This document shows positions 5,411-23,220 of a stretch of DNA of 64,000 nt, in pieces. The notes beneath the pieces are model-generated. The model did no database searches and had not been told where the DNA came from. It was given only the letters and a program-made list of their open reading frames with translations. This stretch comes from a virus. Every line of letters begins with the position of its first letter. The first letter of the stretch is position 1. A program made the translations under genes and the position numbers. The stretch is from IMG/VR virus record IMGVR_UViG_3300033567_000021. One strand, written 5' to 3'.

Positions 5411-5459
5411 GTATCTATTAGTCCAGTCTCTCAGTTGGTGGAACGCTAAGACAGAAAAA

Positions 5460-5963
5460 TTACATCCAGTCCGGTTCCAGAATTTTGATTCGTGCTCTTA
5501 ATGCGTGAATGAGGGGACCAGACGTGGGAAATCCGGTGAATTTCTTTTGATAACTGTATCGCCACTTCTTAAATGCTTCGCTAGTTTCCTGAAGAACACT
5601 AACGAGGTCGAGTTTAGTATCCGGAACTTTTTCTAGTAAAGTTTTGACCACAGGGTCTTGCTGAGCAGACAAATCATAGATCATTGTAACGACTACCCTA
5701 CTTTCCTCACTGAGTAATGCAAACAGTTCAGCCAATCCATGCGTGAATGGGGCGGGTTTCCCATTCTCTATCATGTAGATACATTTCAAAAACAGCTCAA
5801 TTGCAAAGGAAGACAAGGTGATAAACGGAGCGATGTACATACCTATATCGTTTGTCTGCTTCAGTTTTTCAACTACAGCCTGCGACGCGGCTTCGAAGCT
5901 ATTTGCTGTGTCCAAAATATCTTTCGCCGTATAATCCATTTTTCGCGTGACCCCCACAATCAA
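5460..5963 (-). CDS. HEPN-domain protein (moron)
   Basis: SFAIELFLKC...THGLAELF...FKKWRYSY pattern typical of HEPN; lower GC than flanks. Confidence 0.65.
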   Translation of the reverse strand: MIVGVTRKMDYTAKDILDTANSFEAASQAVVEKLKQTNDIGMYIAPFITLSSFAIELFLKCIYMIENGKPAPFTHGLAELFALLSEESRVVVTMIYDLSAQQDPVVKTLLEKVPDTKLDLVSVLQETSEAFKKWRYSYQKKFTGFPTSGPLIHALRARIKILEPDWM

Positions 5964-6020
5964 TCGTAATATTGCTATTTTACTCCTTTCAAATTTTTTA
6001 GGGTCCGCGTGTAAAAAGTC

Positions 6021-6899: not shown

Positions 6900-6920
6900 A
6901 TCGTTATACCTCCTTGTTTT

Positions 6921-7655
6921 TTACCACCATATCTGACAGTATCCATCTGCGCCTTTGCCGCCAGTTCCGTTAAGGGGGCCACCTGTGCCTCCTGCACCTT
7001 TTGTTCCGCTTCCTCCTGACGCAAAGAAAGAATCACCAGACCCGCTAATGTAATAGGTTGAAGATTCATACCCGTCGGTATTTTCACCGCTTGCGACAAA
7101 CACGCCGCCACTATGCCCCCCGGTCTGCTGTGGTGCAGAATACCCAGGACCACCACCAACGCCTCCGTTCCCTGTTAGTGTCGCAGAATTCCCACTAGGC
7201 GAGAATGTGGAATTAGTGCCAGCGCTACCTGACGCGTTAGCCGCCCCAGGCGCTCCGCCAGAACCAAGCGCGATTGTATACTGCGCTCCTGGTGTTACGC
7301 TTAACACCCCGACCGCCGTACCTCCTGGCGCACCCATACGACCGCCGATCGAACTGTTACCGCCACCGCCGCCACCGCCACCACCACATATCGCAGCCAC
7401 AATTTGTGTTACATCTGTGGGAACAGTAAATGTATAAGTTCCTGCTGTGGAGTAGGTTACATTGCCGTGAGGGGTATTCGCCACGCTTCCACCCGCATAG
7501 TACCCAGATGTGATGCTTGCACCGGGGTGCAGTGTCGGGCTACCATTATTCGGCATACTCCCCGAAATTGGACCACTCGACACACTTGCTGTATACCCAC
7601 TTAACAAATCAGCCGCCGTAGCGTTCCCGCTTGCTCCCCCAATTTGGTCAGCCAT
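6921..7655 (-). CDS. Glycine-rich tail fibre / receptor-binding protein
   Basis: GNATAADLLSG fibre-type motif, YTFTVP...CGGGGGGGG Gly-rich domain. Confidence 0.7.
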   Translation of the reverse strand: MADQIGGASGNATAADLLSGYTASVSSGPISGSMPNNGSPTLHPGASITSGYYAGGSVANTPHGNVTYSTAGTYTFTVPTDVTQIVAAICGGGGGGGGGNSSIGGRMGAPGGTAVGVLSVTPGAQYTIALGSGGAPGAANASGSAGTNSTFSPSGNSATLTGNGGVGGGPGYSAPQQTGGHSGGVFVASGENTDGYESSTYYISGSGDSFFASGGSGTKGAGGTGGPLNGTGGKGADGYCQIWW

Positions 7656-9430
7656 TATGCAACACCTACCAATGCGCCTGTGACGTAGACTTGATTTGCT
7701 GTGCCAGCCGTAACCGTTAAAGTGATAGGCGTTCCTGCGACCGCTTCAAAATCGTAGGCGATTACGCCATGACTACCCACCGCAAGGGATTGAGCGTTGA
7801 GTGCAGGCGGCGTATATGGTTGCGCTCCGCCGGAGTCAGCAAAAGCGATTGTCAGAGTGACGGTTGTTGCCGCTGTGACGACACGCAAGTACGATTTGAT
7901 TGAGTACAGACCACTCGTTGTTGGCATGAAAGTGAGTATCGTTTGCGCAGCTGTTGAAGTGACTTCCACATTTTTTGCAGATGTGAGTGTCGCACTCACA
8001 CCGAATGAACCTGCTGTGGTTTGTCCTGCGACTTGTAAGACGGGGTGGGCAAATTGTAACCCGACTACGTTACCGCTCGCATCGGTTTGCCACCCTAAAG
8101 CTAAATCACTAGGCTCCGATGTTTTTCCTGTGCCGAACCATAGATTGTTACCTCCGTCAACATTCGATACGATAAATCGTCCTGGATTTCCCGTGAAATT
8201 TTCCCACTGGCTGTCCGCAGTTGACACCGCTACGGGATTCCCACTTACAGGTGCAACAGAGATTTCTACTGTACCGAGTGCGGTTGTCGTTGCAGCAACT
8301 ACTGGAGGTATAGGCAGATTGACCATTTTGCTTCCATCTACTGCAGTTGCACTGTGAAAAAATCCAACGGTCGTCGGCCTCTCGTCCGTGACTGCAGACA
8401 CATTACCAGAGGCATCTGTTGTAACCTGCGCAATAGGTACATATCCAGTCTGCGTACTATGCGCCGTTCCCCACGATGTTGTTCCGTCCGGATTGTAGTC
8501 TAGGTAGTAAGTGGTAGATGCGGTTGCCGTTGCGAAAGTTGCAGAAGGAAAGGAAATCCTATCGCCACTCGCAAAGTACAGAATTGCCGCCGTGACATCT
8601 AGTTGGGTCGCCGTGGTTGCATCTTTCGTCGCAACTGCACCCGACAGAACAACTGATGTCGAACCGAACACGTCGGATACAACAGGCTTTGTCTGCACCA
8701 CGTTTTTATTCGCGTCAAGTGTTGCCACGCCGTTTGCCGCGCCTTCTGCTGTGGCGAGGATATACGTGTCACTCGGAATGTTTGCGGTGACGCTCGTGGC
8801 GTTTCCGACCGCTGTGTTGATTTGGAATTGCCGTGAAAAGGGACCATCTGCGTAAGGCGGTATCGTATCTCCGTTTGCATTGGCATTGGCGTATGCATAG
8901 AGGATTTCACCTGCTGTAGGGTCCTGAGCAAACAAACCAATTTCACAAGTATAAGTAGACGTCGTTAATTTTGTGTTCTGATACACCCCGCGAATAACTG
9001 CCGTGTTGCTTGTGTCACTGATGGAATTGATATTGAAGTAGTCAATCGGAGAAATGAGCGCGGTTAGGGATGCTTCGTTCTCGGTGATTGCGAGTGAAGT
9101 GCCAACTGTATAATTGGCGTTTGCCGTGAAGGACGCAACAGGAATGGATGTCGCACCTGATGCCGCTTGTGCACTGGCCGTCACGGTTTGCGTTGTAGCC
9201 CCCGATCCAATGACGATTGAACTTCCGCTCAGAACCTCGGCTGACAGCGCGCTCACCGAAAGGCTAGTGTACGTTGCTCCGGAAGTGAGCGCAGCAGATA
9301 GTGTTGCAGATGTTACGAGTTCCCCGCCCCCAATTTGGAAACGTGTGAATTGCAACGCTGTTCCGGTCTGAACTTTACCATATAAGGTTTGTCCAGCTTG
9401 CGTGATGATCATGTTGCCGTAGGTAGCCAA
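7655..9430 (-). CDS. Tail fibre protein with baseplate-anchoring N-terminus
   Basis: N-terminus ITQAGQTL..FTRFQIGGG, EIGLFAQDP..GEILYAY typical of myovirus fibre attachment domains; carries the shared ~70-aa domain. Confidence 0.8.
   Translation of the reverse strand: MATYGNMIITQAGQTLYGKVQTGTALQFTRFQIGGGELVTSATLSAALTSGATYTSLSVSALSAEVLSGSSIVIGSGATTQTVTASAQAASGATSIPVASFTANANYTVGTSLAITENEASLTALISPIDYFNINSISDTSNTAVIRGVYQNTKLTTSTYTCEIGLFAQDPTAGEILYAYANANANGDTIPPYADGPFSRQFQINTAVGNATSVTANIPSDTYILATAEGAANGVATLDANKNVVQTKPVVSDVFGSTSVVLSGAVATKDATTATQLDVTAAILYFASGDRISFPSATFATATASTTYYLDYNPDGTTSWGTAHSTQTGYVPIAQVTTDASGNVSAVTDERPTTVGFFHSATAVDGSKMVNLPIPPVVAATTTALGTVEISVAPVSGNPVAVSTADSQWENFTGNPGRFIVSNVDGGNNLWFGTGKTSEPSDLALGWQTDASGNVVGLQFAHPVLQVAGQTTAGSFGVSATLTSAKNVEVTSTAAQTILTFMPTTSGLYSIKSYLRVVTAATTVTLTIAFADSGGAQPYTPPALNAQSLAVGSHGVIAYDFEAVAGTPITLTVTAGTANQVYVTGALVGVA
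9089..9307 (-). repeat. Shared ~70-aa virion domain, copy 1 (tail fibre aa 42-114)
   Basis: ATLSAALTSGATYTSLSV...SFTANANYTVGT. Confidence 0.9.
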
Positions 9431-9453
9431 TCAACGTACCTCCTTTACTTTCA

Positions 9454-10023
9454 TCAAGCTGGAGCCTGAGTTGTAATGTTGTAATAGTCGATGCCGCTAA
9501 CAAACGCACCAAAATACTCTGTTTGGTTAATCGTCGTGTTGGCAATAACGGAAAGTGTGACTCCCATTGGTTTCGGTATGATGAGACCAGCCGTAACAAG
9601 CTCCGTGTCTAAGTTGTCGGTTAATCCTGTTACGTTCGCCTGCATCGTCATGTCTTGGTTATCGATAATTTGCAGAGTTGAGGTAGGGAATACAGAATTC
9701 CATATGTCGTATATCTTTCCAATTGTTCCATCCCACTGATTACGTGCGATTCTCGCTTGCAACACAAGTCTGTAATGGTTGTCATCGAGAATGGAGGAAC
9801 TAGACGTTAGGGGAACGCCAATGTCACGTTGCTGTCCGATGCTCTGACCCACCACATCTAGTTGCTTTCCGATGGCATTTGTAACACTGAACGCATTCGG
9901 GATTGAATTTGTGGCCGTTTCGCCATCGTCAATCTTCGTGAGTGTAGAAGTAAGCCACGCGGTGAATTTAGGCTTCCCACGATGCTCTGAAGTGATTAGG
10001 TCCAGATAGGGTGTTATCGACAT
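9454..10023 (-). CDS. Baseplate wedge protein (DUF2612-like)
   Basis: YLDLITSEHR..PKF, GKQLDVVG, YRLVLQARIARNQWDGT; follows baseplate J. Confidence 0.8.
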   Translation of the reverse strand: MSITPYLDLITSEHRGKPKFTAWLTSTLTKIDDGETATNSIPNAFSVTNAIGKQLDVVGQSIGQQRDIGVPLTSSSSILDDNHYRLVLQARIARNQWDGTIGKIYDIWNSVFPTSTLQIIDNQDMTMQANVTGLTDNLDTELVTAGLIIPKPMGVTLSVIANTTINQTEYFGAFVSGIDYYNITTQAPA

Positions 10024-10035
10024 TTGCTCACCCCT

Positions 10036-11433
10036 TTACGAAGCATTTACAGTGATGTAATTTGTGTTCCCTCGCGATGCTTGGTTGAAAGCAACCGGAA
10101 TGTCTACTGTGCCCGGTGTAAATGCAACTACGGTTCCTATGGCGTAAGCGGCGTTTGCCGTGAAGGACGCAACAGGAATCGAAGTCGCGCCCACCGCAGC
10201 AGCCGCACTCGCTGTGACCACCTGTGTAGTCGAACCTGATCCGATGGTAAGTGATGCGCCAGACGCCACTGTGACGTTCAATGCGCTCACAGAAAGCGAT
10301 GTATATGCTGTGCCTGACACGAGCGCAGATGAAAGCGTTGCGCCGAGATGAACGGCCGCTTGAACACCCGTGACCGAAAATGCCGGATTCGCAGAGTTGG
10401 GATTGGCGGATAGTGCCGCACCCCAGAGACTTGAGATGTACACGTCTGTTCCGATGGCAACCGTATTTTCATACGACGATATGGCAGTCTGGATTGCTGT
10501 CGTGGTATCAGTTGTGTACCCACTTAATTTCTTGACGTTCACGACCACATCCACATCCACATAACCTAGGACGTCATAGTTGATGTTTGTGACCACTCCA
10601 TATGAATCTGTGACCGGGACTGTGGTTGTTCCATTCGTGCCACAGCCTGGACCCTTGTAGTCAAATATCGTCTGCCCGATATCTGCAGATGCGCCACCCT
10701 CAACGACACAAGTAACTGAATGCGCGGGTAATCCATTCGCATCTGTACTCGAAGTGTCGTTTTCATACACCTTGAACCGCGTTACGCCAGACAAATCCGC
10801 AAGCGCACCTTCCATGCCTTCTATGATGCTCTTGCTTGCCTGTGCCGTGCTTATGGCTTGCCGTGCGCGTAAAGCTGAATCAGTCTCAACTGGCGTACCC
10901 ACTGTGGCAGCGACCGTATTGGAGACGGATGTCCAACCAAGCGTCGGGGTGACAATGGAATTTATGTCCCCGGGATTCGCTGTTATGGCTCCTGATGTCT
11001 GGCAGGTGGCCGTCACGGTTACAGTTCCATTCGTACCGATGATTGTTGGGCTTGGCAATGACCAGTCAACCCCGTTTACATCAGACACAATCCCGCCGGT
11101 TATTTGAAGTCCTGCAGTACCTGTAATGACTACAGGACACGTCGAATACACTGCAGGATTCCTTTTGATGCCGTTTATACCGACAATGACGTCAAGTCCG
11201 CTGCCGATTGCAGTTGCAGGACCCCTGCTGTTATAAACCGCCTGACTGGTCAGAAATGAATCGTAAATCTTTTGAGAAACTGCACTAATCCACTGATAGT
11301 CCTGCGTATCGATTCCGAGATAAATGTCAGACCCGAAAATGTTCTGTGCATCGGCAACCATTTGGTTCACAATGTCTTGATAGGTTGGAATATGCATTCC
11401 GTTCGAATCGATGTACGGCGCAAAATAACTCAC
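10036..11433 (-). CDS. Baseplate J/gp47-like wedge protein
   Basis: GSGLDVIVGINGIKR, ETDSALRARQ, GLPAHSVTCVVEGG; GTG 11433 with RBS AAAGGAG. Confidence 0.9.
   Translation of the reverse strand: MSYFAPYIDSNGMHIPTYQDIVNQMVADAQNIFGSDIYLGIDTQDYQWISAVSQKIYDSFLTSQAVYNSRGPATAIGSGLDVIVGINGIKRNPAVYSTCPVVITGTAGLQITGGIVSDVNGVDWSLPSPTIIGTNGTVTVTATCQTSGAITANPGDINSIVTPTLGWTSVSNTVAATVGTPVETDSALRARQAISTAQASKSIIEGMEGALADLSGVTRFKVYENDTSSTDANGLPAHSVTCVVEGGASADIGQTIFDYKGPGCGTNGTTTVPVTDSYGVVTNINYDVLGYVDVDVVVNVKKLSGYTTDTTTAIQTAISSYENTVAIGTDVYISSLWGAALSANPNSANPAFSVTGVQAAVHLGATLSSALVSGTAYTSLSVSALNVTVASGASLTIGSGSTTQVVTASAAAAVGATSIPVASFTANAAYAIGTVVAFTPGTVDIPVAFNQASRGNTNYITVNAS
10123..10341 (-). repeat. Shared ~70-aa virion domain, copy 2 (baseplate J C-terminal region)
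   Basis: ATLSSALVSGTAYTSLSV...SFTANAAYAIGT. Confidence 0.9.
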
Positions 11434-11452
11434 GGCGTGAATGTCACTCCTT

Positions 11453-11797
11453 TCACGCCACATTCCCAAACTGACTTTCGACCATCATATTTGTGATTTG
11501 ATACTTCCTGTCTACGTAACTACTTGAAAAAGAGGTAATCTGCACGACGCCTTGGACGTCGAGGATTACCTCTTGGATAAGCATATCAACTGCATGAATG
11601 TGATTAGGAGAACCGGACAACCCGAGAATGTTCTGGAACAGCGGAAGACCCTGTGATGTGTCTTCCCACCACTCGCCTTGAAGGAGTTTCAAGGATGTGT
11701 ATACGGCTTGTCCTACCGCGTCTGCATCCGTATAAAAGTCGTTCGAATTGCCACCGAATATCATGTCCCCGTTCGCATCGAGTTTCCGATAGCGCAA
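11453..11797 (-). CDS. Baseplate wedge initiator (gp25/W-like)
   Basis: MRYRKLDANGD..FG, LKLLQGEWWED..GLP; position before baseplate J. Confidence 0.75.
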   Translation of the reverse strand: MRYRKLDANGDMIFGGNSNDFYTDADAVGQAVYTSLKLLQGEWWEDTSQGLPLFQNILGLSGSPNHIHAVDMLIQEVILDVQGVVQITSFSSSYVDRKYQITNMMVESQFGNVA

Positions 11798-11809
11798 GTT
11801 CCCACCCCC

Positions 11810-12358
11810 TTAACCAATCACGGTTCCGTTTGCTTTGACGGTTGTCGCAATGAGGTCTATTTCACCCGGTTTCATGCTGATATACGTGCTGCCGTCGTCC
11901 GTTCGCAATTGAGCGGAAGTCGTGGAATAGTTACTCACGACTCGTGGTTGGCTCCACATTCCCAAGATTGCCACGCCGTCTGATAAGTCGTGCCTTCTCT
12001 TTTCCGCTTGATTTTGAATCCCACCATTCTGCCACCACGAGTCCATGCAGTTGTCTAAAAAGACAACCAAACATTCGTCACCCTTACTGATCGGCATCGT
12101 AAGAGAAAATCCACCAGCGCGCGGAAACACAATCGGTACATCGACGAGTAGAGGGAGCGGAACAAAGGAATCCGTCAAATCAGGCTGTCGTATCCTTTCG
12201 CGGATTGCAGGTTGGACAGTTACTGTCTGCTCGGTGGCATTGAATGATTGGACGATGCCAGGTATTGCGACCCGCAGAGTGTTCGATAGATTGTCCATTA
12301 CAGCACGAAAGGTTTCTTCCTGATTGTTCGGAAGTATGTCTCCGATGGATAGCGTCAT
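11810..12358 (-). CDS. Baseplate spike (Gp138-like N-terminal domain)
   Basis: PGIVQSFNA..QTVTVQP, DVPIVFPRAGGF, GDECLVVF, RRHDLSD. Confidence 0.85.
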   Translation of the reverse strand: MTLSIGDILPNNQEETFRAVMDNLSNTLRVAIPGIVQSFNATEQTVTVQPAIRERIRQPDLTDSFVPLPLLVDVPIVFPRAGGFSLTMPISKGDECLVVFLDNCMDSWWQNGGIQNQAEKRRHDLSDGVAILGMWSQPRVVSNYSTTSAQLRTDDGSTYISMKPGEIDLIATTVKANGTVIG

Positions 12359-12371
12359 GACAATCCTCCCC

Positions 12372-13829
12372 TTACCACGGATTAGCTGTCGTCGTGCTAA
12401 TCATTCCAGGTATTCCGCCAGCTTGTGAAACCGTCGTGCACGAGCAGTACCAATCGTCTCCTCGTGTGTCCCCGATGAATTCAACGCCGACAACACGATA
12501 TATACCAGCGGCATCGAGCGGCCTTGGCACCGAACCTATTTGGTATGTTTGCGCTTGGACCAGACTGTTGTCGATATGAACGAGGGTGTTTATCTTCATG
12601 GCTGGATTCAACAAACATTTGAACGAAACGCCAAGTTCGTTTTGAACAGGTTGACCAATTAGCCCCGATTGAGGCGTTAGGTCAATGATTTCACCTTTAG
12701 GAGGATCGGACGCATGAATCAAATTGATGCGTCCATCATGCATGCTGTAAGCCGCGTTGTTCCCTTGTGCGATTTGGCGCAAGAAATCTCTTGTAAGCCC
12801 GAATACCACCTTTCCGCGTGGGAGCTTGGCGGTGCTCAAGGATGGTGATATTTCTCCTATTGGGCTTGGTACACTCGCATTACTCGCAAGGTTTTGTACG
12901 AGACTCCTTGCGGATTGACCGCGCGCCACGGTGAAATTCGCAAATGCCTGATTCAGTTGCAAGTTGGACGTAAGCGCGTTTATCGTCAAACGGTAGGTCA
13001 CGTTGTCCGGTTTGTCGCGAATAGGTTCCACGACATCCCCTTCAAAAATGACGCCGTATTGAGAGCCTTCATAACCTGCCTCAACAACAATCTTGTCGCC
13101 ATAGTTGAGAAGGAAGTTCTCTGTGGCTGGGTTCAAGTTATAGATGACAACCGTGGAGAACGGTGGTTGTTGATTGACCACGTACTGAATGTCGAATGTG
13201 CAATGAAGGTCTGATACGTCAAGCGCAATACCGCTGCTGTTGCTCACCAAGATGCGATACCGACGTCCATATAAAATGTTTCCTGTGCGCTGACTGTTCG
13301 CGAGCACGCTGTAGTTCGTAGCCGGGAAACTGACTTGATTATCAGTGGACGTATTGTCCAATGCATACGTTGTAGACAAGTCGAAAGTTAGGCCACTCGG
13401 TACGTTGTATTTGGTGCCTGTTACCGCTGTGTATGCGGCATATAATCTATGCCCATCCCCGCCGTAATGTCCGGTGTCCCACGGGCTTTGTATGATTGCA
13501 TTGAGTTGGGCGAGCGGGCTACCAGTTTGTATCGCTGCCCTGACACCCGGATAACTCGGATCTGTTTTATAGAGCGTTGCATACCCTTCTGCCCCTGCTG
13601 CAGGCGACGGGAAAATTATAAATCCCCCGGATGTTAATGCGCCTGTCCCCAGCCTATCTACAACCGAATTACCCGGCGTGATGCCCGCCGGATTGTACCC
13701 GGGCCAGTTTGCGCTTGATATGAACTCTTCTGCCAACCACTGTGCTAGTACGACATTCCTGTCGAGTCCGATGGCATTCGTAACGCCTTGCGCTAATTGG
13801 GCAACGTATGGATCGATTGTTACACCCAT
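12372..13829 (-). CDS. Baseplate hub protein with N-terminal lysozyme-like domain
   Basis: C-terminal ~300 aa hub motifs (VVIYNLN, VEAGY..GVIFEG, TPQSGLIGQP); N-terminal ~135 aa with AQWLAEE, NPAGI, FPSPAAG..Y. Confidence 0.75.
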   Translation of the reverse strand: MGVTIDPYVAQLAQGVTNAIGLDRNVVLAQWLAEEFISSANWPGYNPAGITPGNSVVDRLGTGALTSGGFIIFPSPAAGAEGYATLYKTDPSYPGVRAAIQTGSPLAQLNAIIQSPWDTGHYGGDGHRLYAAYTAVTGTKYNVPSGLTFDLSTTYALDNTSTDNQVSFPATNYSVLANSQRTGNILYGRRYRILVSNSSGIALDVSDLHCTFDIQYVVNQQPPFSTVVIYNLNPATENFLLNYGDKIVVEAGYEGSQYGVIFEGDVVEPIRDKPDNVTYRLTINALTSNLQLNQAFANFTVARGQSARSLVQNLASNASVPSPIGEISPSLSTAKLPRGKVVFGLTRDFLRQIAQGNNAAYSMHDGRINLIHASDPPKGEIIDLTPQSGLIGQPVQNELGVSFKCLLNPAMKINTLVHIDNSLVQAQTYQIGSVPRPLDAAGIYRVVGVEFIGDTRGDDWYCSCTTVSQAGGIPGMISTTTANPW

Positions 13830-13839
13830 ACCATCACCC

Positions 13840-14190
13840 CTACCCTATATAAGATTCACTGTCTGACCAGACAAGCAAGAAATCAGATCCGAGGTCCGTG
13901 AAAGTTGGATTGTCGGGCAATCCCGTTGAAGCAGGCACCAGATACGCGCTACCGATGCCGAGATACTGATATTGGTGGAGGATGTTTGCCGCTGGATACT
14001 GTCCGGTGATGACAGGGATTGCATCGAGCAACAGATTCCCGTTTGTATCAGCGATGGACATGTACCAATACGCGCCTTGCGCATTCCACGTGAAGGAAAA
14101 GGTTAGAGTGACATTCTTCCCATCGACCGGAAGTGTGCATGTTTCCATCTGGTTGGAACCGGATGCGATAGGTACAATCACATTCGCCAT
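13840..14190 (-). CDS. Baseplate plug protein
   Basis: LTFSFTWNAQGAYWYMSI..D, QYQYLGIG; canonical position. Confidence 0.7.
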   Translation of the reverse strand: MANVIVPIASGSNQMETCTLPVDGKNVTLTFSFTWNAQGAYWYMSIADTNGNLLLDAIPVITGQYPAANILHQYQYLGIGSAYLVPASTGLPDNPTFTDLGSDFLLVWSDSESYIG

Positions 14191-14264
14191 GCGTTCACCT
14201 CCAAAACATGATGATGAAAAGGTTTATTTTGTATATGATGTAACCATGAAATGGAGGATTAATT

Positions 14265-14513
14265 ATGAGATATTTTCTAGCCATTGTTCTACCGCCTCTA
14301 GCTGTTCTCTTTTGCGGAAAACCAATATCGGCAATACTCAATCTTTTTCTTTGTGTTTTCGGTTGGATACCAGGCGTCATACATGCATTTTTTGTCGTTA
14401 ACAGCCACAAGAATCAAAAGTCCATGCGGAGGATTGAAAACAGAATCATGTCATCAAGCGTGTTAGCGCATCAAGACGCTTCCGAGATTGTAGACGCCAT
14501 TCGGAAAAAATGA
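14265..14513 (+). CDS. YqaE/Pmp3-family membrane proteolipid (moron, antisense to tail operon)
   Basis: LAIVLPPLAV...LNLFLCVFGWIPGVIHA signature; RBS GGAGG. Confidence 0.85.
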   Translation: MRYFLAIVLPPLAVLFCGKPISAILNLFLCVFGWIPGVIHAFFVVNSHKNQKSMRRIENRIMSSSVLAHQDASEIVDAIRKK

Positions 14514-14514
14514 A

Positions 14515-15096
14515 CTACGATGTCTTTTTTCCATTTATCAAGCCACCGATAATCGACAGCAGTGACGAAGGAACACCCTGCGGCTGCTGTTTTCCTTTTT
14601 TGGAGTTATCGGTTGTTCCCGGGTTTGCGCTAATCTTAACTACCTGCACCGTGGCCACAAGTAACTCTTTCATCTCTACGGTGCACCTAAGACCGTGGGT
14701 GGTCGTGTGGTCATCTTGGGCGGTCAATGTCTCGACAAGCATGTTCTGGTATAACCCCAGCCTCGTATACACCTGGATAGGGATGCGTAACTGCTGAAGT
14801 TGCTGAAGGACCTTAAATGCTTCCACTGACCGCGATGAACCACCGGAGAATTGACCTGGTATAAAACTCTGCGCGACATCTGACATACCGATATTCAGCG
14901 ATATGGTGCGCGGCTGTAGATATGCAAAGTCAGTTACGGATGAACCCTCTTGAATAGGATGGTCCGTCGTGGTCAGCGTGCTCGTGTGTGTGCCTTGGAG
15001 CAGAGCATCAAAAAACCAACCGCCAATGTTTGTCTTGGCGTACACGAAGGTGCTGATGGGCTGCTGCGTAAGGTCGAGAACAGGAGAAGAGCTCAT
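14515..15096 (-). CDS. Baseplate/tail tube initiator protein
   Basis: TTTDHPIQEGSSVTD, YTRLGLYQNML; follows tape measure. Confidence 0.75.
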   Translation of the reverse strand: MSSSPVLDLTQQPISTFVYAKTNIGGWFFDALLQGTHTSTLTTTDHPIQEGSSVTDFAYLQPRTISLNIGMSDVAQSFIPGQFSGGSSRSVEAFKVLQQLQQLRIPIQVYTRLGLYQNMLVETLTAQDDHTTTHGLRCTVEMKELLVATVQVVKISANPGTTDNSKKGKQQPQGVPSSLLSIIGGLINGKKTS

Positions 15097-16643
15097 CGCA
15101 TGACACCCCTCAAGTTGTACAAGTGGCGATTGTATCCCTGCTGAATGGCACTCGCTACAGATTGCGGATTACTTCCGTAGACATTGACCGTTTGTGGTGC
15201 GTTCACTTGCGTTGTTTTCGAAGATGAGCTGCCGGTGTTTTGGAACATGTACGGATATGATGGCGGACCAACGGCAGGTCCCTTTGCACCGGTCACATCA
15301 GACTGAGATATAATCCCGGTGTTCGCTAAGTTTTGACCAGTCCACATGTTCTGAAGGACTTGGCTTGCACCTTTCCAATCCCCGTGTAAAGCATCGCCCA
15401 CGAGATTAGCCAAACTAGATAGTTCCTCGATTGCTCCAGACAATTCTTTAATTGCACCAATAGCGAGGTCCGCGATTAGCTGGAAGAAGTTCTGTAAACC
15501 GCTTGAACCACTGCTGTTATTAAACAAACCGAACAAGTGTCCAATCCCGGTAATTACATTTCCAAGAGAACCCCAAAGGTCACTAAACGCTTTGAATAAA
15601 GAAGAAACCGAACCAGTATAAGCCTTTATAGTTCCATTCTTCTGGAATGTTGTGTACATATTCTCGGTGAACTTTTTCACCTTTTGCATTGTACTACCCA
15701 ACCAGTCGAACGACGTTTTGATGTCTCCGGCAATTTTCTTTCCAATCCCCATCTTCTTCAACGCGTCAGTCGTCTTAACGACCCACGCCCATAATTGCGG
15801 AAACGCCGACTTTGATGGGTTTTGCAGATAGGTCTCAAAGTCATCTAACAGGAGAATTGCCGCGCCTATGCCCTCAATGAACAGCATAAAAGGATTTGAT
15901 ATCGAAAGAATGGCGAGCGCGGCCGCTATACCCTTCGCCCAACCAGGCACATATTGGAGTATTGTTTTAAGCCACGTGTAAACCTTGCCAAGCGCTTGTC
16001 CAATGTAATATCCGGCTTGGACAAACGATGCCATGACCTCGGCCACTTTCTTTGTCCATGTCGGCATATTCTTGATGATAACGTTGTTGATGGACTGAAG
16101 AACGTCATGCACCTTTGAGATGGGACCCGACATGTATTTGATGAAGTAGTAGCCAATCCATTGCAGCGCGTAATATGCCTCGAGTTTCATCTGCTTGAAC
16201 TGGAGTTGCACGTTCTGAATCATCTGTATCTGTTGCTTGTAATCGGTTGGTGTTGCCATCTGCAGTGCAATTTGGTGCAACTGTTGATACTGTTTCATGA
16301 GTGTCGGACTCAGATAGAGTTCCTGCAGCGTTGCGCCCATCGACTTGAGTGTCGCATTGAACGCTTGCGCCTGTTGTTGGGTAGTCCACAACTGCCGAGA
16401 CAATATCTCCATCTGGATTTCTTGGTTGCCGAGCCCGTTCAGGAACTTCGCCGTTCCGACCACTGCGGCTACACCGAAAGCTGCTACCGCTGTACTTGCC
16501 TTCGCAAGGTTTTTGATAGCATCCCCCGCAAACTTTGTAAGTCCTACGTCAACAGAATCAATTGCTTTTTTCGTCTGGTCGTATGAACCTTTGTCCACTT
16601 CGAAGCCGAGGCTCACAAGATAGGATTTTATCGTCTCTAACAC
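15093..16643 (-). CDS. Tape measure protein
   Basis: IKSYLVSLGFEVD start, long helical/hydrophobic body, follows tail chaperones. Confidence 0.85.
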   Translation of the reverse strand: MLETIKSYLVSLGFEVDKGSYDQTKKAIDSVDVGLTKFAGDAIKNLAKASTAVAAFGVAAVVGTAKFLNGLGNQEIQMEILSRQLWTTQQQAQAFNATLKSMGATLQELYLSPTLMKQYQQLHQIALQMATPTDYKQQIQMIQNVQLQFKQMKLEAYYALQWIGYYFIKYMSGPISKVHDVLQSINNVIIKNMPTWTKKVAEVMASFVQAGYYIGQALGKVYTWLKTILQYVPGWAKGIAAALAILSISNPFMLFIEGIGAAILLLDDFETYLQNPSKSAFPQLWAWVVKTTDALKKMGIGKKIAGDIKTSFDWLGSTMQKVKKFTENMYTTFQKNGTIKAYTGSVSSLFKAFSDLWGSLGNVITGIGHLFGLFNNSSGSSGLQNFFQLIADLAIGAIKELSGAIEELSSLANLVGDALHGDWKGASQVLQNMWTGQNLANTGIISQSDVTGAKGPAVGPPSYPYMFQNTGSSSSKTTQVNAPQTVNVYGSNPQSVASAIQQGYNRHLYNLRGVMR

Positions 16644-16648
16644 AGTGA

Positions 16649-16888
16649 TTACCTCCCTTCTTCGGACGCTTCACGCGCGCGCCAATCATTCTCTGCACGC
16701 ACTTGGAGTATTTCGTGCGCATCTAACAGGTCATCAAACGAGTAGACGTCTTCCACGAGGTCCTTATGCGTCCAGAAGTCCGCGACAACGGGCGCGAATA
16801 TAAACGGGTCAAGGTTCGTTAGTTCGGCGAGTTGGTAGCCAGGATACCGCCAAGCAACCCCCTCAAGGGGCTTCCTTCGAAAAAACCC
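16649..16888 (-). CDS. Tail assembly chaperone GT extension (-1 frameshift frame)
   Basis: Open -1 frame past slippery G GGT TTT; SFDDLLDAHEILQV motif; no RBS-coupled start seen. Confidence 0.65.
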   Translation of the reverse strand, partial: GFFRRKPLEGVAWRYPGYQLAELTNLDPFIFAPVVADFWTHKDLVEDVYSFDDLLDAHEILQVRAENDWRAREASEEGR

Positions 16889-17298
16889 GTGAAGTTGTGA
16901 ATGAGCGTATGGACCATCAGTGCCATGATGGTCATTCCATCCTCTTCTAAGTCCGGTACAGAGAAAGACCCGTTGTCGTAGACCACAGGAATCGAACCAC
17001 TCGGCATATTTACTGTGCAGACCTCTAAACACTTTTCTTGGATGTACGTGAAGTCTGATTCGGTGAGTTGTGCGAGAGGCGCAATCAGAGATGCGATGTC
17101 GATGTCCTTAAGAGACACATTGTCCATGTTTTCGACGTCATTCAATAGCTTCGGGTCCAAGCCTTTGATAAGAGGTTCGACCATCGGAGCCAATATGCCA
17201 GAAACCTTCATAATGATGAATGGTCCTTTTTTGGCACTGAACTTTCCAATCCGATAGTCGCGTCCTTTAATATTTACGTTCTTGTACTTGTCTCCCAA
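16819..17298 (-). CDS. Tail assembly chaperone (G)
   Basis: Between tube and tape measure; acidic. Confidence 0.75.
   Translation of the reverse strand: MGDKYKNVNIKGRDYRIGKFSAKKGPFIIMKVSGILAPMVEPLIKGLDPKLLNDVENMDNVSLKDIDIASLIAPLAQLTESDFTYIQEKCLEVCTVNMPSGSIPVVYDNGSFSVPDLEEDGMTIMALMVHTLIHNFTGFFEGSPLRGLLGGILATNSPN
16882..16888 (-). promoter_or_regulatory. Programmed -1 frameshift heptamer GGGTTTT
   Basis: Codons ACG GGT TTT fit X XXY YYZ near the 3' end of the chaperone gene. Confidence 0.7.
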
Positions 17299-17311
17299 TC
17301 AAAGCATCCCC

Positions 17312-17752
17312 TTATGCAACGTTTAGTTCAGTGATATCCGCGGCCATCATGTTCCACGTACGTTGTTGGCCTTGCGCCTGATAAGACAATTCTGCTCGTT
17401 GCTGGAACGATACGTCAGAGGCAATAACGAGGTCTCCCATATTCGGTGAGCGGACAGTCGAAGAGATTTGCGCCCATTCGGAAGAAGGCGCTGTGAGAAG
17501 GTAATTGTAGAGATTGAGCAACCACTTATTAAACTCTGAAGTCTGCTGAATTTGAATCGCCATGGACCCGTTGTTACCCTCGATTTTAGACACCATAATC
17601 GATCCATCGGCGGATACGTCATGTGCTGTTCTTTCTGTACTCATCGTGATTGTGATTGTGCCTAATCCGACACCGTGCGCAACATACTGTCCGACTGCCG
17701 GGTGAGAAATAACCAATGCGACATCGCCAAAGCTATAAGTTGTCGTTGACAT
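17312..17752 (-). CDS. Tail tube protein (DUF3277-like)
   Basis: TYSFGDV, MSTERTAHDVSADG, QQTSEFNKWL. Confidence 0.85.
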   Translation of the reverse strand: MSTTTYSFGDVALVISHPAVGQYVAHGVGLGTITITMSTERTAHDVSADGSIMVSKIEGNNGSMAIQIQQTSEFNKWLLNLYNYLLTAPSSEWAQISSTVRSPNMGDLVIASDVSFQQRAELSYQAQGQQRTWNMMAADITELNVA

Positions 17753-17769
17753 TTAAGCAACCTCCTTCG

Positions 17770-19104
17770 TTACTGATTCACAACCAAACCGATAACTACG
17801 TGCTCAATAGCGCCGGCCATCTTTACGCACGCATAAATCGGAGGAGACTTACGAGCGGTCCTGTCTGCGGAGCTCTGGTTCGCAATTGTATCTGCAAGAA
17901 CAAGAAAACCGAGAGGTAGGTTTGTTCCCGTTTGCAACCCTAAAACAGGCGCGGCAGTCCAGATTCCAGGTGCCAATACGCCTTCTTTGCGAGCCTGGTC
18001 GCAAACGCTGGAAATCGCATTAACGAGTATCGTCACACCAGGGTCCGTCTGTGGTACTTTTGGACTTTGAGTGAGTGCGGTGACGACTGCCGTTTGAATC
18101 CCGACCGTAAGCGCATCGATATTGAGCAACTGGTCAAACGGCGTTCCATCGGCCATCGTGCCTTGCACCAATAAATCGTATTGGCCGTTGTAACTCGTAT
18201 ACACATTTCCGTTCCATCCGGTTATGTTCGTGAGCTGTTGCGTGGTCAGGTTGTCGGCAGTAACTCCAATGAGCGATTTGTATGCGAGTGAGAAGGCCGA
18301 GTTTGCGAGACCGGTATTCGATCCCATCGCAATTCCCATAATGGCAGCGCCGGCATATGCTTCGCTCGTCGTGTAGATGCCAAGTACACGCGTATACTTG
18401 TTCGCTTGTAGCACAGACATCACGTTCGGTGTCGTTCCGCTTGCCACATTCGCCGATTGTGTGTCGTAGAATTGTGCGGACAATGGCGTGGCAGATTGGA
18501 TGTACCCTGCAATGGCTTCAATGTCTGCGTCTGTGGCTCCTGTGACATAACAGGCATACCAGTTAGTATTTGACGAACGGCACGCTGTGACGGCTTGCAG
18601 AGGTGTCTCCGCTGCCGATACGTTCGCACCAATGGCATACGCGGCATTCGCGGTGAAGGAGTTGACATCAATCACCGTTGCGCCTGCAGCGGCAGCGGCA
18701 CTCGCAGTGACGACTTGCGTTGTCGGAGCTGTTCCAATCGTGATGCTCACGCCGGGCTGCACAGCTTCAGGAAGTGCGGCCACATCGATCACTGTGTAAG
18801 CCGTCCCAGATACGAGTGCCGCCGACAGAGTCGTTGCAATCGTTCCCTGTCTTCCGATAACCACGTTTGACGGTCGTGGGGTTTGTGAGAAATAGACTTC
18901 TGCCGCTTCGTACTCGGGCTCCGTGCCCGTCCAACCATTTGAAGTCATGTCGGATGTACTGCTATATAGCGCAGTCCGATTGGCTGTCGGTATGATTGTC
19001 GACGCCCCGATGATGAGACCCAGATTGAGTTGGTTGGCCGATGCAGATACGGGCGATACCTCAACTGTCACACTTACGATATTAGATAGAGATTGTGTGG
19101 GCAA
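17770..19104 (-). CDS. Tail sheath protein (DUF3383-like)
   Basis: LSNIVSVTV, YFSQTPRP..IGRQ, KVPQTDPG, KMAGAIEHV. Confidence 0.9.
   Translation of the reverse strand: MPTQSLSNIVSVTVEVSPVSASANQLNLGLIIGASTIIPTANRTALYSSTSDMTSNGWTGTEPEYEAAEVYFSQTPRPSNVVIGRQGTIATTLSAALVSGTAYTVIDVAALPEAVQPGVSITIGTAPTTQVVTASAAAAAGATVIDVNSFTANAAYAIGANVSAAETPLQAVTACRSSNTNWYACYVTGATDADIEAIAGYIQSATPLSAQFYDTQSANVASGTTPNVMSVLQANKYTRVLGIYTTSEAYAGAAIMGIAMGSNTGLANSAFSLAYKSLIGVTADNLTTQQLTNITGWNGNVYTSYNGQYDLLVQGTMADGTPFDQLLNIDALTVGIQTAVVTALTQSPKVPQTDPGVTILVNAISSVCDQARKEGVLAPGIWTAAPVLGLQTGTNLPLGFLVLADTIANQSSADRTARKSPPIYACVKMAGAIEHVVIGLVVNQ
18616..18834 (-). repeat. Shared ~70-aa virion domain, copy 3 (sheath aa 91-163)
   Basis: TTLSAALVSGTAYTVIDV...SFTANAAYAIGA. 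Confidence 0.9.
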
Positions 19105-19113
19105 AATTTACAC

Positions 19114-19644
19114 CTACCCTTCTTCAACTTGTACATTTGCAGTTTGGAGATATGCGATTGAAGATTGACGAATAACCAACTCGTTGAAGTTGGCGTAGAG
19201 AGAAGCGCGATTGAACCACTGACCATTGAACAATTCCGGTGTCCGTATCGCCACCGGAACGTCAGTTACCAGCGCGATATTATTCGCAGATAGGGTGGAA
19301 AGAGTTGAGTCTAGGAATAAACCCGAACGAATGACGTCGACGTTGTCTGCTGCGTTTGGACCATAGAGCGTCCACGCCACGCGAATGCCCATTGTGTAAG
19401 TCAGGTTAGAGTTCGCGTTGTTGGCGTCGAGTTCGGTGTAGTCTGTCTGAAGTTGTCGAGTATACGTATTGTCGGTTGGGGTTATGGAGATGAAACAGAT
19501 ATCCTGCGATATGGACCAACTAGGCGCTCCATCTGGAATCCAGTTGATACGCACTACACTCGGGTCTGTTGTCCCCAGCAGGCTACTCGTAAGAGACTGA
19601 AATATGTTTTCAATCTGCGCGATGGTCAAAACTGTATCAGCCAT
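19114..19644 (-). CDS. Neck / tail terminator protein
   Basis: Position before sheath; WTLYGPNA, PELFNGQWFNRA. Confidence 0.7.
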   Translation of the reverse strand: MADTVLTIAQIENIFQSLTSSLLGTTDPSVVRINWIPDGAPSWSISQDICFISITPTDNTYTRQLQTDYTELDANNANSNLTYTMGIRVAWTLYGPNAADNVDVIRSGLFLDSTLSTLSANNIALVTDVPVAIRTPELFNGQWFNRASLYANFNELVIRQSSIAYLQTANVQVEEG

Positions 19645-20009
19645 TATGGTGTCACCTCAGTCGAAGGATCCATCTTGACGGCGATGACCTTGTAATAACC
19701 GTAATCCGCAAACGCAAAGAGTTGCATTGCCCTCCACCGGTTCCCGCGCCATTCGATTTCGTCCGAAGTACCAGTCGCATCTGTAACGATGAGTTGAGAG
19801 GTTGAATAGACGGAAATCGCGCCCTTTTGCCGATCGCCTTCAGGTATCTGTTCAAGGTCATCGGAAGTAGAAACTGTAATGACACCGCGCACGGTTATTG
19901 CCGATTCAGTCGGTGTCCACCTACCCGCCACAAACGAACCGCCTTTACGGTACACGGTGAACGATTGGGATAGGCGAGGACTATTGACGATTCTGCCGAC
20001 GTTCATCAT
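19644..20009 (-). CDS. Head closure protein
   Basis: Position; GGSFVAGRW, LEQIPEGDRQKG, ADYGYYK. Confidence 0.7.
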   Translation of the reverse strand: MMNVGRIVNSPRLSQSFTVYRKGGSFVAGRWTPTESAITVRGVITVSTSDDLEQIPEGDRQKGAISVYSTSQLIVTDATGTSDEIEWRGNRWRAMQLFAFADYGYYKVIAVKMDPSTEVTP

Positions 20010-20677
20010 GGTTTCTTCGCCACCACATAAGTAATCGAATTGCGTAGATTGGCAGTATCGATGTTTGGTCGTGCGCTATTCTTACCTTTGATAAATTTCT
20101 TTCCGTTCTTGCCCGGTTTACTGCCTTTTATTGTGACCTCTGAATTCGGTGGCCAAAGGTTCAGCGGATTGTAAAACCAGTCTTTTGCAACCCTTACCCC
20201 GTATTCACCCGCAACGCGTAAAGCATTGTGTATATCGCCGCCACTCAGCGCGGCCTTTGCAACCAAGCTGAGTTTTTCAGCTATCTTGTCCTTGCTGTTT
20301 TCGATAGACGGTTCCAACACAGGACGAGGCGGTGAATGCCATAGTGGCGATCCATTCTCATGAAGGTACAGGTCATAAGCCGCGCTGTAAGGCATGCCAT
20401 CGGTCATGTTTTGGGAGAACTTATCAAAATCCCGCATGACAGGCATACCACCAGGCGTAAGACCCATGTATTCGTTCATTTCTTCGCGCATTTCCTTGCT
20501 TCGGACACCATGCGTTAAGATGTACATGAGTTCGGGGTTGGTAATGTCCTCGTGGCTTCCGACGTCCCCTTCGGGGATACCAACGTAGACATCGACGCTT
20601 CCAAGAGACTGGAGTGATTGTTCGATTTGCTTGGTCAAGTCCTTTTGTGTGCTGACCTTCGCCAACGCTTTCAGCAT
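20006..20677 (-). CDS. Virion morphogenesis/neck protein (HK97 gp10-like)
   Basis: VYVGIPE, PPRPVLEP, PNSEVTI..K, IDTANLRNSITY. Confidence 0.75.
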   Translation of the reverse strand: MLKALAKVSTQKDLTKQIEQSLQSLGSVDVYVGIPEGDVGSHEDITNPELMYILTHGVRSKEMREEMNEYMGLTPGGMPVMRDFDKFSQNMTDGMPYSAAYDLYLHENGSPLWHSPPRPVLEPSIENSKDKIAEKLSLVAKAALSGGDIHNALRVAGEYGVRVAKDWFYNPLNLWPPNSEVTIKGSKPGKNGKKFIKGKNSARPNIDTANLRNSITYVVAKKP

Positions 20678-20689
20678 CCAATCACCCCT

Positions 20690-21181
20690 TTACCAAATCC
20701 CCATGCCACCCATGCCCACCATCTTCGCAAATGTCGCTAACTGTTTTCCGTATTCTGTCGAGTTCCATGACGCCCACCCATCAACACTTGATATGTTCGC
20801 ATCAACCGAGTACGAAACATCACCTACAGATTCACCTGTAAGCACGCCTTGCGCGCGCCCGGCTTCAAACACCGCAGCAGCACCGCTATTCGGGTCCGCT
20901 GTCGTTTCGAGATACAGCGTGCAGAAGTGGGCAATATACAGCCCCATAGCAAGCTGCCACGCGCTACGCCAACGTTTCTGCTGAATGCTCGCATTGGCCA
21001 TGGTGAGGAATGTCTGAATCACGGCTGTGGGCACGACAGGAGTACCTTGCGCGTTGTTCCCGAACTGCGGATAGAACGCGGTGAAGTCTGTTATCGCATA
21101 GGGCGGATTCGTGCCTTGTCGAAGATTCGACGCGTCACCGAAATCAACAAATGAATTGGAGAACGAGTAACCTTGTCCCAT
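20690..21181 (-). CDS. Head-tail adaptor (DUF4054-like)
   Basis: FTAFYPQF, LYIAHF, ESVGDVSYS, WNSTEYG. Confidence 0.85.
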   Translation of the reverse strand: MGQGYSFSNSFVDFGDASNLRQGTNPPYAITDFTAFYPQFGNNAQGTPVVPTAVIQTFLTMANASIQQKRWRSAWQLAMGLYIAHFCTLYLETTADPNSGAAAVFEAGRAQGVLTGESVGDVSYSVDANISSVDGWASWNSTEYGKQLATFAKMVGMGGMGIW

Positions 21182-21183
21182 GA

Positions 21184-21435
21184 TTATTCACTCGCTTCGG
21201 ATTGCGACTTCCTACCCTTTTTCGGAGTGTTGGCCTCTTCTTCGGCAACCTTCTCTGCTGATTTGGTTTCCGTGACCGAAATATCTCCATCATTACTTGC
21301 CAACTCAAACATTCTTGAGTGTGCTACCCAATCCGGAACATCCGAAAAAGAAAGAGCCCGCGTAAAAACGGGCTCTGCAGCATCTCTTCCTTGCGGATGG
21401 TCGAATCGGAAAGATTTTTTTGTAAAAATCCTCAC
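21184..21435 (-). CDS. Small head-associated protein
   Basis: Directly after major capsid; VPDWV motif. Confidence 0.6.
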   Translation of the reverse strand: MRIFTKKSFRFDHPQGRDAAEPVFTRALSFSDVPDWVAHSRMFELASNDGDISVTETKSAEKVAEEEANTPKKGRKSQSEASE

Positions 21436-21447
21436 GATACTTCCTCC

Positions 21448-22461
21448 TTAGATACCATCCATGTACAGACATGGTTCGTTGTAAAGGAATTTCACCTCTG
21501 AAAACTGAGCGGCGAAGTTGGTCAAGTAAGCCATCTCGCGCACATCTGGCTGGGTCATGACACGGGACAACGGAACGGTGAGGTCGATGTTGATGCGATC
21601 CTCATCGTTCACGTAGCCCATCATGCGGTCCGTTCCGCCGGCGCCAGCACCTGTGCACCAACGCGAAGGCACGATGACGACATCAATGCCTTGGTTGCGA
21701 CCGATGTTGTTGTCGAGCAAGAACTGCAAGATGGACTGACTGCCGGCACTCGTCACAGGTTGTCCGACGATATAGGCATACTGTGCAGGCGGAATAAGCA
21801 GATGATTCGACATACCGGTCAAGTCATACTGCGAATTTTCCCAGGTTGTATTGACGAGCGTGTTCACGTCGTTCAGAATCTCCTGCGGTGTTTTCTTCGT
21901 CCATAGCGGACTACCAGAAGCACCGTTGACAGCCGTGGTTGCGGTGACATTCGGGTTGTTCAAGAGACCTGTCGTTCCGAAATCCGGATAGCCAAGATAG
22001 ACAAGGTTGTCGAGAGACTTGTTGTAGTTCAGTCGAATACCCTTGTCCAAAATGTCATTGAGCGAACGACCGATGCCATGCATCTTCTGCTGGTCAACGA
22101 ACGGCACTTTCAAGATGTTTGAAAAGGTGAATACCTTCCAAATATCTTTGGCCATGTTCGCTTGGATGATTGGAATGTCGTTGGATTGACCTCCGACGAT
22201 TCCGTTACCTTGACCACCAGTCGTGCCGTAATCCACGCCATATTGCGATGTGAATTCAGACCATCCACCACCAGTGCGTGCCACGATGTCCCGGGGCCAT
22301 GTCACAGACTGCAACGGTTCTAGTAAGCGAGGGTCCCGCTTCTCTAACTCCGCGTTCAGAAATGCCATACCAGTGCCGATGGCAGCGGCGTCCATCGTCA
22401 TCGAACCGCTTAGTCCGGGTACAGTGTATTGTTGCTCGGGCAACTTGATTGCTGTTGTCAT
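21448..22461 (-). CDS. Major capsid protein (DUF2184-like)
   Basis: FLNAELEKRDP, GTTGLLNNPNV, WTKKTPQEILND, YMDGI. Confidence 0.9.
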   Translation of the reverse strand: MTTAIKLPEQQYTVPGLSGSMTMDAAAIGTGMAFLNAELEKRDPRLLEPLQSVTWPRDIVARTGGGWSEFTSQYGVDYGTTGGQGNGIVGGQSNDIPIIQANMAKDIWKVFTFSNILKVPFVDQQKMHGIGRSLNDILDKGIRLNYNKSLDNLVYLGYPDFGTTGLLNNPNVTATTAVNGASGSPLWTKKTPQEILNDVNTLVNTTWENSQYDLTGMSNHLLIPPAQYAYIVGQPVTSAGSQSILQFLLDNNIGRNQGIDVVIVPSRWCTGAGAGGTDRMMGYVNDEDRINIDLTVPLSRVMTQPDVREMAYLTNFAAQFSEVKFLYNEPCLYMDGI

Positions 22462-22479
22462 ACGGTCAATTCCTCCTTA

Positions 22480-23220
22480 TTACGCCTTACTCCGGCTCAA
22501 GATGGTCAATTCTGCAGTGAGATTCGCGTCGATACTTCCGGTTTTCCATTGGACACTGGTCAATTGGACGGAGTTCGCTCCATCGGCGACAGCTTCGAAT
22601 CCACCAACAACCGCATTCGGGAACGCAGCATTGGTTGCAACACGCACCCACACGGAACCTCCGGCCACAGGCGTGCCATTTTGGCATGTAACTGTGATGG
22701 AACCGCGTTGCAATGCGTCGCAAGGTTGAGTGGCGGTATAGGAGCCGCCCTGTGTCTGGAGCAAATAGTTTGTGGACTGTTTGACCTCACGAACAGCGAT
22801 ACCGGCGAATTGGGACGCCACGTTCGTAACAGTTACCGCCGTACCGACCGCATAGGCTGCGCTCGTAGTGAACGAAGCTACGCTAATAGTCGTTGCACCG
22901 GCATCAGCATCAGCATCGACAGTCGTCGTCTGCGCGCCGAGAGTGACCGTTGCACCAGATTGAATTGCATTACTCAGGGCGGCCACTGTTAGAGAGGTGT
23001 ATGCGGTGCCGGTTGCAAGTGCCGTTTGAAGGGTCGTAGCGACCGCACCAAACGCGGAATATGTGTTGTCTTGGTTGAGGGCAACAGGAGCACCAAAGTT
23101 AATAGCAATCGTGTCGCCTACGCTTACTGCGCGGTTCTCGATGATAGCGTCTGCACTACGCGAGACGCTACCTGGATATCCGAGGTTTAATGTTTTACCG
23201 ATTACGCTTCCAACTGCCAT
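22480..23220 (-). CDS. Capsid cement/decoration protein
   Basis: GYPGSVSR, FGAPV, FAGIAVREVK, LQRGSITV, GGFEA; between scaffold and capsid. Confidence 0.8.
   Translation of the reverse strand: MAVGSVIGKTLNLGYPGSVSRSADAIIENRAVSVGDTIAINFGAPVALNQDNTYSAFGAVATTLQTALATGTAYTSLTVAALSNAIQSGATVTLGAQTTTVDADADAGATTISVASFTTSAAYAVGTAVTVTNVASQFAGIAVREVKQSTNYLLQTQGGSYTATQPCDALQRGSITVTCQNGTPVAGGSVWVRVATNAAFPNAVVGGFEAVADGANSVQLTSVQWKTGSIDANLTAELTILSRSKA
22831..23037 (-). repeat. Shared ~70-aa virion domain, copy 4 (cement aa 62-130)
   Basis: TTLQTALATGTAYTSLTV...SFTTSAAYAVGT. Confidence 0.9.

Follow-up and report, generated by a model that had tools for sequence, protein, structure and literature searches.

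Accessory decoration domains that pass between virion proteins are a known theme in phages, and they are considered to modulate how phages adsorb, their host range in structured environments, and the stability of the particle. Knowledge of such decorations comes so far mainly from immunoglobulin-like (Ig-like) domains carried by one or two proteins. These domains (Big_2, I-set, and FN3, found on Hoc, major tail, fibre, and sheath proteins) have been proposed to bind cell-surface carbohydrates weakly or to stabilise the particle (PMC9230969). Another described arrangement is the I-domain of the P22, Sf6, and CUS-3 coat proteins. It is a six-stranded beta-barrel, similar to domain 2 of EF-Tu, which is held in a loop of a virion lattice protein. 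It is fixed in one protein family, where it aids coat folding and capsid contacts. Described here is a small beta-barrel domain, referred to as the module, that is inserted in four virion proteins encoded by IMG/VR virus record IMGVR_UViG_3300033567_000021. The stretch analysed is 64,000 nucleotides in length and is referred to as the window. The four host proteins are the capsid cement, tail sheath, baseplate J, and tail fibre proteins. What is new relative to the known theme is that the family is unannotated, that its composition is unusual, and that its distribution from head to fibre is unusually complete.

All four host genes are on the minus strand, and the module coordinates given below are those of hidden Markov model (HMM) envelopes. 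The capsid cement gene (22480-23220) encodes 246 residues and matches PF22758 (Phage_cement, E 3.5e-13), PF23982 (XM1_gp53, E 3.2e-14), and phrog_563. The two Pfam matches score 50.3 and 53.5 bits, above the cut-off of 27. Its module spans residues 60-130 (22831-23043) with an HMM E value of 2.3e-29. The tail sheath gene (17770-19104) begins with TTG and encodes 444 residues of the DUF3383, or E217_gp31, type. It matches PF11863 (E 4.5e-57, 194.5 bits against a cut-off of 34.9) and phrog_205 (E 1.2e-86), and its module spans residues 90-164 (18613-18837, E 3.4e-36). The database call for this gene (P0006, 392 residues) begins at the internal Met53. The TTG start at 19104 is supported by sheath homologues, whose alignment begins at residue 1.

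The baseplate J gene (10036-11469) encodes a gp47-like wedge protein of 477 residues, with matches to Baseplate_J (PF04865, E 6e-16, 58.9 bits against a cut-off of 21.1) and phrog_6 (E 1e-48). In this protein the module is near the C-terminus, at residues 375-449 (10123-10347, E 2.1e-34). The tail fibre gene (7655-9430) is located downstream of the gene for the DUF2612 wedge protein and encodes 591 residues. Its module is in the N-terminal domain, at residues 40-114 (9089-9313, E 5.5e-34). The tail fiber family phrog_7037 matches this protein (E 1.1e-32) in two stretches that flank the insert. The same gene is seen again at 62064-63839 because the window wraps.

The original prediction, made from the sequence by eye, held that a single domain is present in all four proteins, and this was borne out. 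Alignment of the four segments gives 27 invariant columns. When all six reading frames of the window were searched with a profile of the segments, only these four genes were found, with E values of 2e-29 to 3e-36, and the predicted boundaries agree with the HMM envelopes to within a few codons. No fifth copy was found in the 54,409-bp genome, where the next best profile match has an E value of 0.17. The genome length follows from the window itself, as positions 1-9591 are identical to positions 54410-64000 with 0 mismatches. The window thus consists of a single unit of 54,409 bp followed by a repeat, which puts the number of module copies per genome at exactly four. The source contig is listed at 109,066 bp, or about two such units, which suggests a circular or concatemeric phage genome that was assembled twice over.

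The composition of the module is unusual. None of the four copies contains Lys, Arg, or His, and Cys is also absent. The baseplate J copy has no charged residue at all, and Asp and Glu are nearly absent over the four copies. Ala, Thr, and Ser together make up 51-60% of the four copies. These counts agree with the composition first noted by eye.

Each copy had also been predicted to be an in-frame graft that splits motifs normally close together. Homologues of the sheath, cement, and baseplate J proteins were collected by word-indexed searches, and comparison with close homologues that lack the segment gave a clean insertion point at all four sites. In the sheath, the insertion is between IGRQ and ETPLQAV. 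Homologues without the module are 368-371 residues in length, are up to 76% identical, and run IGRQD straight to ETPLQAV. They include proteins from Alicyclobacillus, Paenibacillus, and Brevibacillus prophages. The module is present at this site in the window protein and in 11 metagenomic relatives. In other relatives the same loop contains unrelated inserts of 90-130 residues (for example P0033, P0052, P0108, P0114, and P0122), and these five proteins have no Pfam match besides DUF3383. The unrelated inserts indicate that this sheath loop is a permissive insertion hot spot.

The cement insertion is between a block ending in YSAFGA and a block containing QFAGIAVREVKQ. The two blocks adjoin in Alicyclobacillus and Brevibacillus homologues, and cement proteins are 171-177 residues long without the module and 245-258 residues long with it. 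In baseplate J, the insertion is between a block ending in QAAVH and the sequence TPGT.DIPVAFNQ. Homologues without the module are about 391 residues in length, while those with it are 451-468 residues, and it is present in 28 of the 120 homologues listed. In the fibre, the insertion is between FTRFQIGGGEL and TALISPIDYF. The fibre encoded on one related contig (L002) lacks the segment between QIG.G and TAL.TPI.

An AlphaFold2 (AF2) model of the module, made from a 132-row alignment, is a six-stranded beta-barrel with a mean predicted local distance difference test (pLDDT) value of 91.1. The segment is thus predicted to fold as an autonomous domain. A Foldseek search with the model against the PDB gave nothing below an E value of 0.001. 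Fold comparison was made by an exhaustive VIA scan with an 83-residue model. The best match, with a Z score of 9.0, is the insertion domain of the phage Mystique tail tube protein (9n71). It is followed at Z 8.0-8.3 by barrels from the phage Chi tail tip (8vjh), the JBD30 baseplate (8rk3), and the VP1 capsid protein (9in6). Tailspike linker domains match at Z 6-7, the P22 coat I-domain (2m5s) at 6.7, the Sf6 I-domain at 5.8, and EF-Tu domain 2 at about 6. Structural neighbours in AlphaFold DB, BFVD, and ESM Atlas are phage tail, head-decoration, tube, Mu Gp36, and P22-coat proteins, and one of the ESM Atlas neighbours carries PF11651 (P22_CoatProtein). The fold of the module is therefore a small barrel of a kind that phages commonly add to their proteins.

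Both halves of the module carry a strand motif of the form ..TS(L/I).V.(A/S)(L/F).., and an hhalign comparison of one half with the other gave a weak match (probability 14%, E 0.002). The barrel may have originated by an ancient internal duplication.

The module resembles each of the known systems in part. Like the Ig-like decorations, it is a small all-beta accessory domain found mostly in virion proteins. Both kinds of domain move between unrelated proteins, are dispensable in relatives, and occur in tandem in bacterial surface proteins. The original prediction had drawn this analogy. Its logic holds, and its fold does not, since the module is a six-stranded barrel and not an Ig sandwich. 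No Ig-type Pfam family matched the four proteins at E≤0.1, and the best fold matches are barrels. The module also differs from Ig-like domains in that it sits inside loops rather than at a terminus and is nearly uncharged. To our knowledge, four proteins of one virion is more than is usual for Ig-like domains.

The P22-type I-domain likewise is a barrel in a loop of a virion protein. No sequence similarity between it and the module was detected (no PDB match below E 1.6), and unlike the I-domain, the module is mobile, optional, and found in four other protein families. The Mystique, Chi, JBD30, and VP1 barrels are also extra domains of virion proteins. They superpose on 76-79 of the 83 model residues with a root-mean-square deviation of 2.4-3.0 Å. 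Their identity to the module is only 6-17%, and they were missed by the sequence profile. Each of these barrels is known from one host protein, as opposed to four in the window phage.

The module belongs to a widespread domain family that has no database name. A HMMER search of 1.84 billion representative sequences found 553 clusters at E≤1e-3, and the count at E≤1e-10 is 165; a protein has between one and seven copies. Most of the proteins that carry the module belong to the virion, among them tail fibres, tailspikes, head proteins, and Dit, sheath, wedge, and neck terminator proteins. Others contain Malectin, Laminin_G_3, CBM, or RCC1 domains. One protein of 1,873 residues (P0245), encoded on an 11-kb Logan contig, contains five module copies, a TIG domain, and three CWB2 cell-wall-binding repeats. 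This surface-type protein with five copies indicates that the module is not confined to phages. A search with narrow patterns from the four-row alignment found only three genome loci and four IMG/VR loci, and each of these is on a fragment.

No Pfam family covers the module in the four window proteins (E≤0.1), and none does so in NCBIfam. Among 149 representatives of the module family, no Pfam family was matched by more than five members. No PHROG family corresponds to the module; those most often matched are families of the host proteins (tail fibre, 13 of 76 members). The module profile run against all PDB sequences gave a best E value of 1.6, to unrelated proteins. A tblastn search of 50,697 GenBank phage records with the module gave no match, and one with the fibre N-terminus matched only the part after the insert; the low-complexity filter may lower the sensitivity of both searches.

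Low charge is a trait of the whole family and is not peculiar to the window phage, as 164 of 260 family instances have no Lys or Arg. The median Asp plus Glu content of the family is 1.4%, and Ala, Thr, and Ser make up about 50%. The remainder of the same proteins contains 3.6% Lys plus Arg and 6.2% Asp plus Glu.

The four copies are 49-71% identical to each other in protein and 50-63% identical in DNA. The same codon is used at only 20-40% of identical residues, and synonymous sites are saturated. A tree of 113 instances clusters the copies according to the site of insertion. The resolution of this tree is poor, as the alignment has 75 columns. The baseplate J site required 5 label changes on the tree compared with a mean of 24 after shuffling, the cement site 7 compared with 19.5, and the sheath site 3 compared with 10.6. 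None of 500 shuffles was as good as the observed clustering. Saturated synonymous sites, a conserved protein, and grouping by site together indicate that the copies are old duplicates under purifying selection.

Two other origins were considered and ruled out. A recent intragenomic duplication or gene conversion does not agree with the DNA identity of 50-63%, the scrambled codons, or the site clustering. Repetitive DNA or an intein-like element was rejected because the protein is conserved and the DNA is not, and because the segment is a plain barrel.

The presence of the module varies among close relatives. The window phage and the relative L001 have it in the cement, sheath, baseplate J, and fibre proteins. 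L003 has it in cement and baseplate J but not in the sheath, and it has a different receptor-binding protein instead of the fibre. L004 has it in baseplate J and the fibre but not in cement or the sheath, and L002 has it only in cement. A prophage of Alicyclobacillus sendaiensis NBRC 100866 has it only in the fibre, and other Alicyclobacillus prophages lack it in the cement, sheath, and baseplate J proteins. Overall, relatives were found with the module at four, three (on a contig known in part), two, one, or no sites, and the core proteins of these site-variable relatives are 54-76% identical. Each site is thus independently present or absent in close relatives, which indicates that the module is optional, an accessory rather than an essential part. 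In the Alicyclobacillaceae, it is present in 1 of 45 genomes, as the fibre copy of the A. sendaiensis prophage.

Two of the relatives also differ in other genes. In L003 (17092-17742 and 20623-21047), an AP2-domain protein (weak Pfam match) lies inside the baseplate gene module and a pectate-lyase tailspike replaces the fibre. L006 encodes an extra protein with a weak CBM_5_12 match (19853-20710) between the sheath initiator and baseplate J.

The window phage is a temperate tailed myophage of the Pam3/E217-like type, and its closest relatives are Alicyclobacillus prophages. The set and order of its virion genes are the same as in the Pam3, E217, and XM1 type of 'minimal' myophage. These genes encode DUF2213 (Pa193_gp24-like), cement, major capsid, terminator, DUF3383 sheath, and PhiTE-type tube proteins, and also Dit-like, E217_GP41 hub, sheath initiator, baseplate J, DUF2612 wedge, and fibre proteins. 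The genome is 54.4 kb in length, compared with 54.5 kb for Pam3 (PMC9942802). The Pam3 sheath and wedge proteins have no extra domains (PMC9942802), whereas the window phage has the same module on four of these minimal components.

The AF2 model of the full sheath has a pLDDT of 91.8 and matches the Sf14, XM1, PhiTE, Pam3, and E217 sheaths with VIA Z scores of 28-34. Nearly the whole two-domain Pam3 sheath aligns to this model, so the module is an extra part. Additional sheath domains are described as lying away from the tube-contacting core (PMC9230969). The cement protein was predicted as a trimer with a score of 0.92, compared with 0.00 for the best of three controls. This score passes the mark set for the prediction tool, which in calibration was reached by 20 of 30 proteins whose solved structure is a pair of one chain and by 1 of 23 whose solved structure is a single chain. 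These counts are a rough guide here because the prediction used a custom alignment and three copies. The confident trimer interface comprises residues 22-26, 48-52, 172-174, 185-188, 224-229, and 238-246, all of which are outside the module at residues 60-130.

By these models, the module probably projects from the particle surface and decorates the outside of the whole particle. The original prediction had proposed a coat extending from head to fibre. The grafts on four virion proteins, the hot-spot loop of the sheath, and a cement interface free of the module agree with this proposal, and the outward exposure itself is a matter of inference. Pam3 has 420 cement subunits, 132 sheath subunits, 12 J-like subunits, and 12 fibres (PMC9942802). 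If the window phage has the same stoichiometry, each virion would carry several hundred modules.

The reading favoured here is that one mobile barrel family, placed in loops of four virion proteins, acts as an Ig-domain-like surface decoration that gives weak multivalent adhesion. It is put forward tentatively, a little short of being called probable. In this reading, the module would be a passive, pH-insensitive surface domain that acts like the Ig-like decoration domains of other phages. The many copies would bind weakly and multivalently to a polymer of the host envelope and so speed reversible adsorption. A more robust particle, if one results, would be a secondary benefit. Adhesion is preferred because family members are concentrated in proteins of the receptor-binding and lectin types, because the module forms tandem arrays on a surface-type protein, and because it is dispensable in close relatives and strongly conserved.

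Several points weigh against adhesion. No member of the module family has a known ligand or binding site, or a known phenotype in adsorption. Small residues (Ala, Thr, Ser, and Gly) predominate at the conserved positions and aromatics are few, which is atypical of carbohydrate-binding sites. With the module in only 1 of 45 Alicyclobacillaceae genomes, and there in a prophage fibre, nothing points to a matching partner on the host surface. The case for exposure comes from homology and from monomer and trimer models, and the fold scores of Z 6-9 are in a range where VIA cautions that a match may stem from a common arrangement. The cement and sheath sites would suit a stabilising role equally well.

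That stabilising role is the main rival, and it is possible but rather unlikely. The module would then be structural armour that makes lateral contacts among cement trimers, sheath subunits, and wedge or fibre subunits, and its lack of charge would give pH-independent reinforcement in hot acidic habitats. The absence of Lys, Arg, and His from every copy, with Asp and Glu nearly absent, agrees with this role, as does the thermoacidophilic lifestyle of Alicyclobacillus, whose prophages are the closest relatives. Two of the four hosts, cement and sheath, are high-copy lattice proteins, the P22 coat I-domain has the same fold, and extra sheath domains have been proposed to cement the tail (PMC9230969). 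However, Alicyclobacillus prophages whose sheath, baseplate J, and cement proteins are 67-76% identical do not have the module there, which argues that it is not needed in that habitat. The uncharged composition is found family-wide, also in proteins for which lattice reinforcement is implausible (tail fibres, tailspikes, and lectin-domain proteins). The confident cement trimer interface excludes the module, and there is no Cys or Lys for covalent cross-links.

The remaining alternatives are less probable again. A neutral passenger, in which a self-folding barrel is tolerated in loops and spreads by recombination among phage structural genes with little harm, would account for the combinatorial presence and absence among close relatives. 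It would also fit the other inserts taken up by the sheath loop and the very many unrelated proteins in which the module is found. Against it, the protein is strongly conserved while synonymous sites are saturated, and site-specific lineages have been kept across diverged phages. The cost would also be appreciable, at about 0.9 kb of a 54-kb genome and several hundred extra domains per particle, and a neutral passenger is considered improbable. Slightly more improbable still is a glycosylation scaffold, in which a Ser/Thr-rich barrel would display O-glycans added by host enzymes to give a sugar-coated virion. Some actinobacteriophages are known to have glycosylated virions, and O-glycosylated S-layers are known from related Bacillales. 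The Ala, Thr, and Ser content of the four copies and of the family offers compositional support for such a scaffold. The Pfam matches listed for the non-structural genes (up to 25 families) and for the scanned genes of the structural region include no glycosyltransferase, and the Thr and Ser residues are in predicted beta-strands of a compact, confident barrel and not in a disordered linker.

A more far-reaching form of the adhesion reading would make the module a new charge-free class of display domain for virions and cell surfaces, serving phages and some bacteria as a pH-independent polyvalent adhesin or coat. The lineage of the window phage would be its extreme case, with several hundred modules spread from capsid to fibre and the whole particle, beyond the fibre tips, joining in reversible binding to the host. 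This extension is regarded as doubtful.

The other genes of the window do not carry the module. Downstream of the fibre gene, also on the minus strand, are genes for a Gly_rich_2 (PF21722) protein (6921-7655) and for a 292-residue protein without annotation (6021-6899). Both may be further fibre or receptor-binding components. Among the products of the non-structural genes (28906-54409) are a large serine recombinase (Resolvase, Recombinase, and Zn_ribbon_recom domains), a PAPS_reduct protein, a HipA_2 kinase with a DUF3037 partner, ImmA (M78) and S24 proteins, and SMC/AAA_23 ATPases. This gene set is consistent with a temperate phage. A megablast search of GenBank phages with the structural region gave no match.

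A domain-database entry for the module family would improve the annotation of many tail-fibre and other virion proteins. The module is small and self-folding, contains no Lys, Arg, His, or Cys, and is tolerated as an insert by four different lattice proteins; if it is stable, it is also a possible scaffold for low-pH phage display or protein engineering. For the phages themselves, the close relatives with zero to four module sites form a natural deletion panel for the function of virion decoration.

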